A DNA stretch of 64,000 nucleotides, taken from the NCBI GenBank assembly GCA_041665945.1, contig JBAYHU010000001.1, forward strand, positions 31,863 to 95,862, given 5' to 3'. This DNA is from Candidatus Micrarchaeia archaeon (GTDB lineage: Archaea > Micrarchaeota > Micrarchaeia > Anstonellales > Anstonellaceae). Below are positions 9,039-55,207 of the stretch, piece by piece. The first letter of the stretch is position 1; each line of letters starts with the position of its first letter. The position numbers were made by a program, and so were the translations under genes. Below the pieces are notes generated by a model. That model saw nothing but the letters and a program-made list of their open reading frames with translations, was not told where the DNA came from and did no database searches.

Positions 9039-9157
9039 CGGGCTCGGGGGGATTTGAACCCCCGGCTTTCTGGTTTCTTCAGCCATGCATCTGCTACAAA
9101 CAATTTCGTAGGAGTGTTAAAAGCCAGACACTCTAGGCCAAGCTGAGTTACGAGCCC
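9039..9157 (-). tRNA. tRNA-Lys(UUU) with a 43-nt intron after position 37.
   Basis: Hand-folded on the minus strand. Acceptor GGGCUCG/CGAGCCC. D-arm ACUC/GAGU. Anticodon stem UCUGG/CCAGA, loop CUUUUAA. T-arm GGGGG-UUCAAAU-CCCCC. Discriminator G, poly-U after it. Confidence 0.7.
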
Positions 9158-45568: not shown

Positions 45569-46099
45569 GTGACACCAACACAGCAAACGATTGAGAAAAT
45601 GAAACGCAACGAACCATATAAACCTATCGAGCAGGGATCCGGGAAGGACGCGATTGACGAAGTGAGGCACGAAATCCTCTCCCCGCTTGAGAATGACATT
45701 GCGAAGCTGCGGGACCCGGTGGTCCTGGCGGCTCTCATGCACACTGCGGCGACCGAGCGGGAAAACACCAATCGGCTGCTCAAGACGCTGATAGAGCGGC
45801 TTGACACGAGGTTCGCAGAAGTGGAATCCAGGCTTGCGGCCATGGAGCGCGCAGGCGCGCCCGCCGCTGCTGTGCATGAGGCGGGATTGGAAGGGGAAAT
45901 CCTTCTCCCATCCGTTGACGAGGAGATGCTGAAGTTCGTGAAGGAAAGGAGGCATGTGAACGCGGAAGAGGTCCGCATGAAGTTCGGATACAAGGGGAAA
46001 AACGCGGCAAGTTCGCGCCTGAACCATCTCTACGAGATGGGGCTTCTGGGAAAGAAGCAGGTCGGGCGGGTCGTGATGTTTTTCGCCAAACAACCATGA
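45569..46099 (+). CDS. Hypothetical protein with a C-terminal winged-helix DNA-binding domain.
   Basis: SSRLNHLYEMGLLGKKQVGR is wHTH-like. GTG start. Confidence 0.4.
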   Translation: MTPTQQTIEKMKRNEPYKPIEQGSGKDAIDEVRHEILSPLENDIAKLRDPVVLAALMHTAATERENTNRLLKTLIERLDTRFAEVESRLAAMERAGAPAAAVHEAGLEGEILLPSVDEEMLKFVKERRHVNAEEVRMKFGYKGKNAASSRLNHLYEMGLLGKKQVGRVVMFFAKQP

Positions 46100-46351
46100 A
46101 TCATGAAGGAATCACAACTCACTCTTGCATAGCTGCTGATGAAACGAGGCGGCATTGACGCAAGGCGACCAACAAACAGAGTATGACACTTTTGGGGAAC
46201 ACGAGGGGGCGTTAATTATTCACCTCCCACACCCTTCTTTTAGTGCGCCTCCCGTTCCCCAAAGATTGTCACCCGTCTTTTCTCCCGAAATGCTCCCTGA
46301 GCGCGCGCGTTTCTGCGCGGGATATAAATCCTTTCGGAGAGTATGTGTGCC

Positions 46352-46978
46352 ATGGGCAACTGCGTGAAGTGCGGGGCACAGCTTGCGGAATATTCGGGCG
46401 AGCTGTGCGCCAATTGCCAGTCGTCGCACGCGGGAAGCGGGGCGGCAGGGGATGTCCCGTGCCAGCGCTGCGGAATATACCTCCCTTCATACGAGCTTCA
46501 GATGATGAACTCGCGGCTCTATTGCGCTTATTGCAGGATGGACATCCAGGATGAGGAAGACAGGCACAAAAAATACGCCGAGAAGCGCGAGCCTGCGAGG
46601 GCGCCGGAAGTTCCGCGCGGCACTGGCGGCGCGGGAATGGGCGGAGCTGGCGCGGGCGCCGATGGCGCTTCGCCTGAATTCGGCAAAGGCACTGGCGGCA
46701 TTTGCGAGCGGTGCGGGAAGGAGTCAGGGCACTTGTATTCCATTTCAGGAAGGCGCCTGTGTGAGCAATGCTTTACCGAGGAGAGCGGGAAGGCGCCGCC
46801 CGAAGTGGGGCCGACCATGTTCGCGCAGATTGTAGGCAGGGCAAAGCAGGCGCTCGGGATGGGAAAGCCGCGCGTGCTTGTAGCCCAAAGCGTGAAAGGC
46901 AGGGGGCTGGTCTTCGACGTGGAAACAAGAAGGATGGTCGAGAGGAAAATCAAGCCTGCCGAGAAAAAGAAATCCTGA
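46352..46978 (+). CDS. Triple zinc-ribbon protein (three CxxC...CxxC modules).
   Basis: CVKCG...CANC, CQRCG...CAYC and CERCG...CEQC separated by a Gly-rich linker. Confidence 0.45.
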   Translation: MGNCVKCGAQLAEYSGELCANCQSSHAGSGAAGDVPCQRCGIYLPSYELQMMNSRLYCAYCRMDIQDEEDRHKKYAEKREPARAPEVPRGTGGAGMGGAGAGADGASPEFGKGTGGICERCGKESGHLYSISGRRLCEQCFTEESGKAPPEVGPTMFAQIVGRAKQALGMGKPRVLVAQSVKGRGLVFDVETRRMVERKIKPAEKKKS

Positions 46979-50226: not shown

Positions 50227-50245
50227 AGAAAAGCTAGATATAGTC

Positions 50246-50458
50246 TTAGCTTAGCCAGTTGCCAAAGCGTGGAACCACAAGATAAAGGACGAGCGCCACG
50301 AAAAGACTATATATTGCAATAAGAACGCCCGTAATTATCGGATTATTTGGATTCCAAACCAAATCCAATACTTTTGAAATAAGCGCGCCAGCTACGCTCG
50401 AACCCGCAATCAGCATCGCACTTTTTGCATTTTTACTCAATCCTTTCTTCTTCACCAT
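50246..50458 (-). CDS. Small two-TM membrane protein.
   Basis: ORF with two hydrophobic helices. Confidence 0.3.
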   Translation of the reverse strand: MVKKKGLSKNAKSAMLIAGSSVAGALISKVLDLVWNPNNPIITGVLIAIYSLFVALVLYLVVPRFGNWLS

Positions 50459-50467
50459 ATTTTCACA

Positions 50468-53400
50468 TTAAGAGCATCCGGTGGTTTCCCCGCAATCGAC
50501 ACATACTTGGCACGAGCCGTTCTGCTTGACTTTCATGGAGCCGCATGCCGAGCACTGCGCGCCTGTGAAGCCCTGCGCCTTTGCGGACTTCGCCTTGTGC
50601 TCGTACTCGTCGGTTTCCCGCTCCTCCTCGGAAATCTCCTGCCGCTCGGGCTCGATGAGCTTCACCTGCGATTTCTGCTCTTCCACATGGGGGACGGGTG
50701 CGGGGCCGTGCGAGTCCCCGTTCACAGTTTTCACGTGAACGAAGTCCTGCCTGCCAAGGTACTCGTAGCCAAGCACGCGGAACACGTAGTCGATTATCGA
50801 GGTCGCGTTCTTTATCGCCTCATGCCCTGTCACAACTCCCGCGGGCTCGAAGCGCGTGAAGGTGAACGTGTCCACGAATTCATCCAGCGGCACGCCGTAC
50901 TGCAGTCCCTTGCTTACCGCAATGGCAAAGCAGTTGAGAAGCGAGCGGTAGCCCGCGCCCTCCTTGTACATGTCGATGAATATTTCGCCGATTGTGCCGT
51001 CCGGGTATTCGCCGGTCTTGAGATAGACCTTGTGCCCGCCCACGCGCGCCTCCTGTATGAAACCCTTGCGGCGGGTGGGAAGCTTCTTGCGCGAGAGCCT
51101 GCCGACAATCTTGGACTGCAATTGCGCGGGGCCGAAGGACTCGTCGATTTCCTCGCCCAAGCCGAGAAGCTGGGCAAGCTCGTCCTCGTCCACGTCCGCA
51201 GTCGCGTTGAGCGGCTGGGAAAGTTTGCTGCCGTCGCGGTAAAGCGCGTTGCTCTTCAGCATGTGCTTCCACGAGAGCATGTATGCCTCCTTGATGTCCT
51301 CGATTGACGCGTCGGAGGGCATGTTTATCGTCTTTGAAATAGAGCCTGTGATGAACGGCTGCGCGGCAGCCATCATCTTTATGTGCCCGAGGTAAGAGAT
51401 GAAGCGCGTGCCTTTCTTGCCGCACTTGCTCGCGCAGTCGAAGACCGCGTAGTGCTCGGGCGAAAGGTGAGGGGCGCCTTCGAGCGTCATGCTCCCGCAG
51501 ACGTATTCATTCGCCTCCTCTATCTGCTGTTTCGTGAAGCCGAGCTTGGAGAGCAGGTCGAACTTGGGATTATCCATCTCCGCGTCGGTGAATCCGAGAC
51601 GGCGCAGGAAGTCATCGCCAAGCGAGTACTTGTTGAACGCGAAGCGGATGTCGAACGCCTTGGGAAGCCCTGCTTCAGCCTTCGCAATCTTGTCTGCGGG
51701 GAAGCCCTTTGCCCCAAGCGACGCGGCGTTTATGTGCGGGCAGCCAGTGAGCGTGCCGTGCCCCATTGCGTAAAGCTCGATTTCCCGCACCTGCGAGGAG
51801 TTGTAGCCGAGCTTGACAAGCGCCTTTTTCACCGAGGCGTTGACTATCTTGAAGTAGCCGCCGCCTGCGAGCTTCTTGAATTTCACTATCGCGAAGTCGG
51901 GCTCGATTCCCGTTGTGTCGCAGTCCATCTGAAGCCCGATTGTGCCTGTGGGCGCGATTACTGTTACCTGCGCATTGCGGTAGCCGTATTTCTCGCCAAG
52001 CGAGTAGGCGCGGTCCCAACTCTCCCTTGCCGCCTGCGTGAGGTAGCCGGGGCAGTATTTCTCTTCTATGCCCACGGGCTTTGCAGTCAGCCCCTCATAC
52101 TCGTTTGCAGCCGTATTGTACGCCGCGCGGCGGTGGTTGCGTATCACCCGGAGCATGTGCTCACGGTTGCGCTCGTATGCTAAGAAGGGCGAAAGCTCCC
52201 GCGCCATTTCCGCGGAAGTCGCGTAGGACTCGCCGCACATTATGGAGGTGAGCGCGCCGCAGATTGCCATCCCTTCCGGGCTTTCGTACGGGACGCCCAG
52301 CATCATGAGCACCGTGCCCATGTTGGCGTAACCCAATCCGAGCGTGCGGAATTCGAAGCTTTTTTTGGCGATTTCCTTTGCAGGGAACTGCGCCATGAGG
52401 ACGGAGATTTCAAGCACGACCGTCCAGAGGCGGGTTGCGTGCCGGTATGCCTCGATGTTGAACGCGCCAGTGGATTCGTCGAGGAATTTGGCGAGGTTGA
52501 TGCTGGCGAGGTTGCATGCCGTGTCGTCGAGGAACATGTATTCCGAGCAGGGGTTGGACGCGTTGATGCGCCCGTCAACAGGGCAGGTGTGCCACTCGTT
52601 GATGGTGTCGTCGTACTGCACGCCCGGGTCGGCGCACGACCACGCGGCATAGGCGATTTCGTCCCACAGGTCGCGGGCTTTCATCTTGCGCATGACGCGC
52701 CCGTCCGTCCTTGCAAGAAGGCTCCATTCCGCGTCGTTCTCCACTGCCCAGATGAAGCGGTTGGAGATGCGCACGGTGTTGTTGCCGTTCTGCCCGGATA
52801 CCGTGACGTATGCCTCGGACTCGTAGTGCGTGTCGAATACGGGAAAATCGATTTTTTCCTTGCCCTGCTTGGCAAGCGAGAGCGCGCGGAACACGTAGTT
52901 GAGCGGCACTTCCTTGGCAAGAGCCTGCACGACCGCGAGCTTTATCCTCTCGTTTTTCAGGTCAGTGGATTGCTCCTCGCGGGCGACTTTCATTATCTTG
53001 TTGAGGTGCTTTCCGCAGGATTTGCTCCCCGCCACCATTGCCGCGACTTTCATCTCCTCGCGCATCTTCCAGTTCACGAACTGCTCGATGTCAGGGTGGT
53101 CGACGTCGACTATGACCATTTTCGCGGCCCGGCGCGTCGTCCCGCCGGATTTTATCGCGCCTGCCGCGCGGTCGTTTATCTTGAGGAATGACATCAGCCC
53201 CGAGGAGATTCCGCCGCCTGAGAGCCGCTCGCCTGCGCCGCGGAGCGCGGAGAAGTTCGTGCCCGTGCCCGAGCCGTACTTGAACAATCGCGCCTCGCGC
53301 GTAACCAGGTCGAATATGCCTCCGCTGTTCACCAAGTCGTCGCGGACGGACTGGATGAAGCAGGCATGGGGCTGTGGGTGGGTGTATGCGTCCTCGGACA

Positions 53401-53953
53401 CCTTGATTTCGCCTGACTGCGGGTCGGCGTAATAGTGCCCCTGCGCGCTGCCCTTTATGCCGTATGAGTATGCGAGCCCGGTGTTGAACCACTGCGGGGA
53501 GTTGGGAGATGCCATCTGGTGGAGGAGCATGTAGGAGATTTCGGCTTCGAATGACTCGGCGTCGGCTTTGGACGCGAAGTATCCGTATTTCTCCCCCCAG
53601 TGCCGCCAGCAGCCTGCCATGCGCCGCACGACCTGCCGCACGGACTTCTCGCTTCCGGTCATGGGCTTGCCGTGCATGTCCTTCATGGGGCTGCCGTTGC
53701 GGTCGTAGAGGGGCACGCCCGCCTTCCTGAAGTATTTCTGCGCGAGTATGTCGGTTGCGACCTGTGACCAGGAGCGGGGCACTTCCACGTCGGTCATTTC
53801 AAAGACGACAGAGCCGTCGGAATTGCGGATTATGGAGGGGCGGAATTCGTATTCGGCTGCGTCGAGCGGGTCAGTGCCTTCGGTAGTGAATAGGCGTTTT
53901 ACCTGCAAGCCGCCTTGGCGGCTCTTCTGCTCCGACACAGTCGCTACTTCCAT
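50468..53953 (-). CDS. nrdJ: Class II (adenosylcobalamin-dependent) ribonucleotide reductase.
   Basis: RNR barrel motifs (NPCSEY, active-site Cys) and a C-terminal zinc ribbon CSACG...CVDCG. Start moved to MEVATV (53953). Confidence 0.85.
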
Positions 53954-54049
53954 ACCCACACCCCTTGTTAATTGGAAGCAAGACGGACAGGGAGCGGGAT
54001 TGTGTGCGAAAATGGGCGGAAACACGCACATTTCCACATTCCTTGAAAC

Positions 54050-54082
54050 CAGCCAAAACCACAATATATGGTGTTTTGGCTG
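54050..54082. promoter_or_regulatory. Imperfect 13-bp inverted repeat with an AATATAT spacer about 100 bp upstream of nrdJ. The core ccacaatatatggtgt resembles a bacterial NrdR box.
   Basis: cagccaaaaccac-aatatat-ggtgttttggctg. Confidence 0.4.
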
Positions 54083-54295
54083 CCCTCCAACCACAACCTG
54101 TAGGGCTTGCATACTTTATCGCACATTCAGGTTTATATAGGTTTTTTCGCGCGGAAAAATCCTCTTCGTGGCTGTTTTTTATGGAACAAACACGCGAAAA
54201 ATCTCCGGCGGAAGAGGGGTGCTGCCGGCAGTGCGATTTTACAAACCTTCTTTAAGCTAACGCTCGCTAACAAAAATAATCAGGAGGTTGTTTTC

Positions 54296-55207
54296 TTGAA
54301 GAACGCCGAGGTTGCAAAATCATCTTCATCCACAGGAACATACGCCGTGAAAGCCGGCCTTGCGCAGATGCTCAAAGGCGGCGTGATAATGGACGTCGTC
54401 AACGCGGAGCACGCGAAAATCGCCGAGGAATCAGGCGCTGTCGCCGTGATGGCGCTTGAAGCCGTGCCATCCGACATAAGGAGGCTCGGCGGCGTGGCGA
54501 GGATGTCCGACCCGAAAATAATAAAGGAAATACGGGCGGCTGTTTCCATCCCTGTCATGGCAAAATGCAGGATAGGGCACTTTGTCGAGGCGCAGGTTTT
54601 GGAGGCGCTTGAAGTGGATTATATTGACGAGTCAGAAGTGCTTACTCCTGCGGACGCGGAGCATCACATTGACAAGTGGCAGTTTTCAGTCCCGTTCGTT
54701 TGCGGCGGGCGCGACTTGGGAGAGGCGCTCCGCAGGATTTCCGAGGGCGCGGCGATGATTCGCACCAAAGGCGAAGCCGGCACTGGCAACGTCGTCGAGG
54801 CGGTCCGGCACATCCGCGCCATGAACTCGGGCATCGCGGAACTGAAGGGCAAGGGCAAAAAAGAGCTTGCCGAGGCGGCGGCTGAAATGCGCGTGCCTGC
54901 GCAGCTTGTGGAGAAAGTCGCGGAGCTGGGACGGCTGCCTGTCGTGAATTTCGCCGCGGGCGGGATTGCCACGCCAGCGGATGCCGCGCTTTGCATGCAG
55001 CTTGGCTGCGACGGCGTGTTTGTCGGAAGCGGGATATTCAAGTCGTCCTCGCCTGAGAAAAGGGCGGTTGCGATCGTGGATGCTGTCGCGCACTTCAACG
55101 ATGCGAAGAAAATCGCGAAGGCGTCCGAAGGGCTGGGAAAGCCCATGGACAGCATTGACGTGAACAAGCTCATGCCTGAGGAAAAGCTCTCAAGAAGGGG
55201 CATCTGA
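54296..55207 (+). CDS. pdxS: Pyridoxal 5'-phosphate synthase subunit PdxS.
   Basis: [24 protein letters not shown]... Uses a TTG start after an aggagg RBS-like motif. Confidence 0.85.

Follow-up and report, generated by a model that had tools for sequence, protein, structure and literature searches.

We found that the class II ribonucleotide reductase gene nrdJ of a Candidatus Micrarchaeia archaeon is preceded by a tandem site which, judged from its sequence and from its counterparts in relatives, is quite likely to be a functional two-box NrdR operator controlling this gene in a DPANN archaeon (Micrarchaeota/Micrarchaeia). The window, i.e. the whole stretch of DNA that was analysed, is 64 kb long, and coordinates given without a locus name refer to it. 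The two boxes are situated between a conserved BRE/TATA element and the start codon of nrdJ. The original prediction had pointed to a single NrdR-box-like palindrome upstream of nrdJ. This palindrome was confirmed at 54050–54082, with its centre ∼113 bp upstream of the ATG; its description as a single site did not hold, since a second box 32 bp away makes it part of a predicted two-box NrdR operator, of which the palindrome is the promoter-distal half.

The nrdJ gene (50468–53953, minus strand, ATG at 53953) encodes a class II (B12-dependent) ribonucleotide reductase (RNR) of 1161 aa, identical in sequence to the NCBI protein MFA6489122.1 (Candidatus Micrarchaeia archaeon). The protein has the Pfam domains PF08471, PF02867 and PF12637 (Ribonuc_red_2_N, barrel and TSCPD) and scores 1840.7 bits against the NCBIfam model NF005736 (cut-off 1737); the domain search of NrdJ detected neither an ATP-cone nor an intein. 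Many Micrarchaeota/DPANN homologues of NrdJ among the matches listed are 1500–1890 aa long with intein or LAGLIDADG Pfam domains, and in nrdJ of locus L158 (3330–7904) ∼1080 nt are inserted in frame behind residue ∼197. Archaeal genes (fibrillarin, Pop5, Rpp30, aIF2-gamma, PCNA and others) are present in the window and its 10-kb flanks. A 119-nt tRNA reported by Rfam (53.7 bits; 9039–9157, minus strand) and missed by ARAGORN is consistent with an archaeal intron-containing tRNA.

Adjoining nrdJ we observed an HVO_A0114-family gene (PF25212, 49870–50226); the 103-aa ORF upstream of it was called in locus L081. A DUF7718/HVO_A0114 gene pair adjoins nrdR in locus L085 (5037–5707), and this pair may represent a mobile two-gene module inserting near RNR loci. 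On the opposite side of the intergenic region upstream of nrdJ (53954–54295), which is common to both directions, the divergent gene pdxS (54296–55207) is followed by pdxT. The region, with its 342 bp, is indeed large for this window, as the ∼340 bp stated earlier implied, but it is not unique in this.

On the plus strand the palindrome reads CAGCCAAAACCACAATATATGGTGTTTTGGCTG and is centred on ATATAT. In this extended 33-nt palindrome, to which no strand is assigned, the 10-nt outer arms CAGCCAAAAC and GTTTTGGCTG are perfect (54050–54059/54073–54082), while a 14-nt inner palindrome is imperfect (54056–54077; 86% complementary). Enclosed in it is the proximal NrdR box, the one nearer to nrdJ (54059–54074, minus strand, ACACCATATATTGTGG). 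When the 64-kb window was scanned with the NrdR consensus ACACWATATATWGTGT (acaCwAtATaTwGtgt), allowing up to three mismatches, this box, with two mismatches, was the sole match; 0.12 matches were expected, and one or more were seen in 10 of 100 shuffled sequences. The agreement with the consensus had been put at ∼14 of 16 positions, and exactly 14 of 16 were counted. Mutational work has defined C4, A6, A8, T9, T11 and G13 as the critical positions of the NrdR box (PMC13584703); all six are present in the proximal box.

The distal box (54091–54106, minus strand, GCCCTACAGGTTGTGG) is on the promoter side, 32 bp from the proximal box. It is weak by itself: it has five of the six critical positions and 10 of the 16 consensus positions (six mismatches), it is only half-palindromic, and its centre is CAGG, with the central dinucleotide AG, not AT. 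The second box of E. coli nrdAB likewise has a central AG (PMC13584703). In three relatives (L004, L095 and L108) a better distal box is found at the same place, e.g. CCACCATATATTGTGG. On the nrdJ strand the order is GCCCTACAGGTTGTGG-TTGGAGGGCAGCCAAA-ACACCATATATTGTGG, i.e. box, 16-bp linker (54075–54090, minus strand) and box; the linker is constant in length and variable in sequence. With a linker of 16 bp between boxes of 16 bp, the box centres are three helical turns apart.

Published NrdR sites consist of two 16-bp boxes with a linker of 15–16 bp that is constrained in length only, the box centres being about three helical turns apart (PMC13584703, PMC9110341, PMC12051234). We observed the same features here: consensus boxes with the critical positions (6/6 in the proximal box and 5/6 in the distal one), and a linker of 16 bp in the window and in all close relatives. 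NrdR operators are situated in promoter regions of RNR operons and overlap the binding site of the polymerase or the transcription start; the present site is upstream of nrdJ, and it would overlap the start if the predicted BRE/TATA is the promoter. As a criterion for a tandem site we used at least 11 of 12 critical positions at a spacing of 31–32 bp. A single site of this kind was detected in the 64-kb window (54059–54106), with a mean of 0.17 per window in mononucleotide shuffles. When the fetched loci (1.7 Mb) were scanned in this way, the sites found were almost exclusively directly upstream of nrdJ or nrdR, and textbook bacterial operators, e.g. ACACTATATTTAGTGT-15-ATACAATATTTAGTTA, were recovered.

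Two further 16-mers (50231–50246 and 50304–50319) with 6/6 critical positions and four mismatches each are located 73 bp apart shortly after the 3′ end of nrdJ, in the area of a hydrophobic ORF of 70 aa that had not been called (50246–50458, minus strand). These 16-mers are not conserved in L158, and their likeness to NrdR sites is probably due to chance.

Orthologous loci were collected by scanning genome and metagenome collections with the N-terminus of NrdJ. The Micrarchaeota loci (L001–L004, L088–L093, L095, L108 and L158) have NrdJ identities of 70–93%; more distant homologues were from Ignavibacteria, Kapaibacteria, Bacteroidota, Woesearchaeota and others. The gene order pdxT-pdxS/nrdJ-CNNM is kept in most of the Micrarchaeota loci. 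The tandem boxes, with a spacing of 32 bp and 90–140 bp upstream of the ATG, are kept in all ∼13 Micrarchaeota loci recovered, and the expectation that the site would be found in nrdJ promoters of relatives was thus borne out. Ten close relatives were compared without gaps, and the mean identity per column was 0.96 in the distal box (the most conserved segment), 0.94 in the proximal box, 0.87 in the BRE/TATA-like element, 0.66 in the linker and 0.62–0.67 in the flanks; within the proximal box, CAC and GTG are as conserved as the AT core that they flank. Selection on both boxes and on their spacing has left a clear footprint here.

One could ask whether the boxes are a relic, namely a bacterial NrdR operator carried in with a horizontally transferred nrdJ and now non-functional. 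RNR genes are often transferred horizontally (PMC3019208), and this type of nrdJ is common to many bacteria at 63–67% identity among the matches listed. Still, we find this scarcely credible, as upstream boxes are absent from the closest bacterial homologues of nrdJ (Ignavibacteria, Kapaibacteria and Bacteroidota); also, across relatives with NrdJ 77–93% identical the boxes are conserved at 0.94–0.96 versus 0.62–0.67 for neighbouring non-coding sequence, and the position of the boxes is fixed relative to an archaeal BRE/TATA element.

This element was read from the sequence as a putative TATA box of archaeal type for nrdJ, TATATAAA (54132–54139, minus strand), with a predicted A-rich BRE, CGCGAAAAAACC (54140–54151, minus strand), directly upstream of it. 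Together (CGCGAAAAAACC-TATATAAA, 54132–54151) they precede the distal box by 25 nt in the window. In relatives the TATA box reads TTATAAA or TATATAAA, and its distance to the distal box, which follows it, is fixed. The element persists in L091 and L004, although the preceding gene there has the same orientation as nrdJ; thus, the element belongs to nrdJ and not to pdxS. Given what is generally known of archaeal promoters, the BRE on its minus-strand side would orientate the promoter towards nrdJ.

The usual distance from the centre of an archaeal TATA box to the transcription start is ∼26 nt. With this distance the start is predicted in the region 54107–54111 (minus strand), close to 54108–54110, in a conserved TGCAAG just before the distal box. 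The distal box would then occupy approximately +2 to +19 and the proximal box approximately +34 to +49, with a predicted nrdJ leader of ∼155 nt. A Shine–Dalgarno-like GGGGTG (53959–53964, minus strand), also read from the sequence, is found 5 nt before the ATG of nrdJ; it suggests a leadered transcript, in keeping with a distant promoter. A second palindrome, TTTTTTCGCGCGGAAAAA (54142–54159), overlaps the BRE predicted for nrdJ. This palindrome is kept in L001, L088, L089, L091 and L158, the closest relatives, and not in L002 and L003, and could be an additional regulatory site or just the BRE.

The promoter assignment bears on another explanation, in which the ATATAT core is nothing but the TATA box of nrdJ and its symmetric flanks are incidental. 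Archaeal TATA boxes are AT-rich and roughly symmetric, and here we have an AT-rich hexamer 113 bp before the ATG in a genome with 55% GC. We consider this explanation extremely improbable. A better BRE and TATA (CGAAAAAACC-TATATAAA) is conserved 57 bp further upstream and stays with nrdJ where the divergent gene is absent; the CAC/GTG flanks are conserved equally with the AT core; and the second box, whose CAGG centre is incompatible with a TATA box, is conserved more than any other segment.

The symmetry of the palindrome extends beyond the NrdR box. Folded as an RNA hairpin, 54050–54082 has an energy of −21.4 kcal/mol with its real flanks versus −10.9 kcal/mol with shuffled flanks (z = −3.5). 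In 14 out of 14 loci tested, the sequences flanking the proximal box were more complementary than shuffled ones (with p < 0.05 in eight of the loci), and in relatives these flanks pair via different sequences: CAGCC/GGCTG, CCTCT/AGAGG, CCCCT/AGGGG and TCCGA/TCGGA. In the outer helix 13 cells were changed on both sides, against 5.4 in shuffles, and the observed covariation score was not reached in any of 500 shuffles. The RNAalifold consensus of the hairpin is weak (−3.0 kcal/mol). The outer stem is absent in the closest relative, L158, in Micrarchaeota nrdR promoters, and in bacterial and CPR sites. As regards conservation of the palindrome in relatives, the 16-bp box is the invariant part, while the outer stem is lost in L158 and shows partial covariation elsewhere.

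These data may be taken to mean that a hairpin of RNA or single-stranded DNA is the functional element, with a role in stability, pausing or attenuation, and that the likeness to an NrdR box is secondary, or else that the hairpin is an extra layer. The complementarity of flanks at every locus tested and the excess of two-sided changes agree with this explanation, as does the location of the boxes within the predicted transcribed leader. Its chances seem slim to us nonetheless. The invariant part is the 16-bp box rather than the stem, the consensus fold is weak, and the stem is missing in L158, at Micrarchaeota nrdR promoters and at bacterial sites. A hairpin would leave unexplained the conserved, half-palindromic distal box and the fixed spacing of 32 bp. 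Rfam gave no match to a cobalamin or other riboswitch in 53900–54350 even at E ≤ 1, and at the gathering threshold it gave in the whole window only one tRNA and no riboswitch. Template-switch correction of quasi-palindromes, in addition, could produce covariation without selection.

The 10-nt outer arms fall outside the 16-bp NrdR box, and their covariation in relatives is partial. The outer stem could be a leader hairpin or a by-product of quasi-palindrome mutation. If it is the former, the two-box NrdR operator would be situated in an archaeal leader with its proximal box also embedded in a longer stem-loop that covaries. These 33 nt would in that case have two roles, one as duplex DNA in repression by NrdR at the transcription start, the other as a hairpin, either of RNA or extruded, with effects for example on leader stability, pausing or access of NrdR. 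We regard such a dual use as unlikely; if true, archaea would have elaborated the NrdR system in a way that is undescribed in bacteria.

A functional NrdR operator implies a regulator. We searched the window for nrdR by tblastn with E. coli NrdR and six DPANN NrdR proteins as queries. Neither the window nor the 10 kb on either side of it (∼83 kb of the contig; the extensions are loci L171 and L172) contained nrdR, nor was there another tandem box in the extensions. In close relatives, nrdR was not found within 5–6 kb of nrdJ in any case. We looked for genomes with both genes by accession series and by NrdR contigs: no Micrarchaeota genome with nrdR and this type of nrdJ was found among the best 120 of 8000 matches per search, a selection that is uninformative on absence.

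The view that NrdR is essentially bacterial, expressed in the original prediction, is outdated: NrdR was reported for 22% of archaeal genomes, compared with 77% of bacterial ones (PMC13584703), and this makes an NrdR site in an archaeon less surprising. Haloarchaeal nrdR-nrdAB operons were present in an earlier listing (PMC3019208). In protein searches seeded with NrdR of the Woesearchaeota locus L048 we observed, among the matches listed, many proteins named NrdR by NCBI from Candidatus Micrarchaeota, Micrarchaeia, Norongarragalinales and Burarchaeum. The Micrarchaeota proteins that were tested scored 185–190 bits on the equivalog model TIGR00244 (cut-off 124.65). The alignment of five of them has invariant four zinc cysteines, D15, R17 and the RRRR motif; residue roles in NrdR, including those of the base-contacting D15 and R17, have been described (PMC9110341).

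The genomic context of these genes is variable. In L048 nrdR is directly followed by two class II RNR genes, of which one is of the present nrdJ type, and a box-like site is found in front of nrdR. In four loci (L082, L083, L085 and L168) nrdR precedes an RNR gene whose product has its own ATP-cone. In three Micrarchaeota MAGs (L170, L174 and L175) there is no RNR gene adjacent to nrdR, and one would expect, therefore, that NrdR regulates a distant RNR gene in trans, as it would have to do for the nrdJ of the window. The promoters of nrdR in L083, L085, L168, L170 and L174 have a TATA box followed by tandem boxes 31–32 bp apart. The proposal of bacterial-type NrdR regulation of an RNR gene in this archaeon is thus supported by the tandem box, its 16-bp linker, the critical positions of the proximal box and conservation in orthologues, as well as by the existence of Micrarchaeota NrdR proteins and of the motif before their genes.

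The absence of nrdR from the ∼83 kb of the contig is, on the other hand, what one would see if the operator were convergent, i.e. if an unrelated archaeal dimeric factor read CAC-N-ATATAT-N-GTG upstream of nrdJ in a lineage without NrdR; that the position of nrdR in other Micrarchaeota is held here by another gene points the same way. Such convergence seems very unlikely. It would need chance copying of the six critical positions, of the 16-bp linker and of the target gene; NrdR is common in the phylum and the motif is also present at Micrarchaeota nrdR promoters; and 83 kb is less than a tenth of a typical DPANN genome.

Several observations concern the neighbourhood of nrdR. The gene at 45569–46099 in the window (176 aa) has ∼44% identity to the gene preceding nrdR in several Micrarchaeota MAGs. 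It is followed in the window, in the place of nrdR, by a gene for a 211-aa protein (46343–46978) with three CxxC...CxxC zinc ribbons. As a substitute regulator this protein was rejected, having only a weak double-zinc-ribbon match and no ATP-cone. In other loci a conserved non-coding element of ∼100 nt is located upstream of nrdR and downstream of a 150-aa gene (L083:5486–5587, L082:5466–5559 and L085:4424–4526); in L082, L083 and L174 it is directly between the two genes. It consists of an invariant core CCGACGGTTCAACCCACA, a GC-rich hairpin and a T-run; the core was also found in L168, L170 and L174. Rfam gave no match to the element, and no copy of it was detected in the window. A DUF4430 gene is always 3′ of the nrdR(-RNR) unit (L082, L083, L085, L168, L170 and L174), even where the RNR gene is missing; its homologue was not found in the window.

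Among the matches listed, the nearest non-archaeal relatives of Micrarchaeota NrdR were from CPR/Patescibacteria, and the present type of nrdJ was common to DPANN archaea, CPR bacteria and the Bacteroidota/Ignavibacteria group. This suggests that both the regulator and the enzyme may have been exchanged across domains.

In the two-box NrdR operator that we propose, regulation could proceed by analogy with the systems of S. coelicolor and E. coli, where the mechanism of NrdR loaded with dATP and ATP has been studied (PMC9110341, PMC12176259). An NrdR tetramer (zinc ribbon plus ATP-cone), presumably encoded elsewhere in the genome, would bind both boxes when loaded with dATP and ATP and would kink the DNA at their AT centres. 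As the boxes cover the predicted start and approximately the first 50 transcribed bases, bound NrdR would stop recruitment of RNA polymerase, or its escape, at a promoter dependent on TBP and TFB. With dATP low and ATP dominant, NrdR would oligomerize off the DNA, the ATP-only form making higher oligomers that would not bind, and nrdJ would be transcribed. Since NrdJ itself lacks an ATP-cone, dATP feedback would be provided by NrdR at the level of transcription.

The bacterial NrdR system (nrdRJ and nrdAB in S. coelicolor; nrdAB, nrdHIEF and nrdDG in E. coli) has the same two-box design, linker and critical positions, its sites are located over the start of the RNR transcription unit, as predicted here, and the targets of NrdR in S. 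coelicolor include a class II nrdJ, as we propose here (PMC9110341, PMC13584703). There are also differences. Bacterial boxes overlap the −35/−10 hexamers of sigma-70 promoters, while in this DPANN host they would be downstream of a BRE/TATA. In S. coelicolor nrdR and nrdJ form the nrdRJ operon, whereas here nrdR is not adjacent to nrdJ and binding to the site is a prediction.

The haloarchaeal operons nrdR-nrdB-nrdA and nrdR-nrdA-nrdB likewise tie an archaeal NrdR to RNR genes. Archaeal nrdR was probably acquired along with RNR genes by horizontal transfer (PMC3019208, PMC13584703). Those earlier archaeal reports concern presence of the gene, mostly beside class I RNR genes in Halobacteria; in contrast, our evidence is the predicted operator, which belongs to a class II gene of Micrarchaeota and whose regulator is presumed to be encoded elsewhere. 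The nearest parallel in phylum or superphylum is given by the nrdR-RNR operons of L082, L083, L085, L168 and L048, with the same TATA box and tandem boxes (31–32 bp apart) and, in L048, with a direct link of nrdR to the present nrdJ type. In these Micrarchaeota and Woesearchaeota operons the boxes precede nrdR, which would make it autoregulated, and the adjacent RNR has its own ATP-cone; the nrdJ of the window, unlike them, has neither an ATP-cone nor an adjacent nrdR.

Repression from such a position has precedents in archaea. The repressors MDR1, LrpA and Phr bind at the TATA box or shortly after it and prevent recruitment of RNA polymerase. The predicted operator resembles theirs in that it would be over the start and downstream of the BRE/TATA, so that TBP and TFB could bind while the polymerase would be excluded. 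The proteins themselves differ, MDR1, LrpA and Phr being of winged-helix or Lrp type, whereas NrdR is a tetramer with zinc ribbon and ATP-cone that bends DNA sharply over ∼50 bp.

In the literature that was searched we found no paper linking NrdR with DPANN and no binding or expression data for any archaeal NrdR; an archaeal NrdR operator appears to have had no experimental test. Experiments on NrdR have so far been confined to bacteria, and the archaeal literature holds little beyond gene presence. The finding leaves the understanding of NrdR unchanged, and its value is in confirmation and in a modest extension of range. The locus and its relatives offer a conserved example of a predicted two-box NrdR operator on an archaeal BRE/TATA promoter, and they raise the question of whether a DNA-bending repressor with zinc ribbon and ATP-cone can block transcription dependent on TBP, TFB and archaeal RNA polymerase. 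They also suggest that the very small genomes of DPANN archaea may keep nucleotide-sensing transcriptional control of RNR, which would act here on an enzyme that has no ATP-cone.
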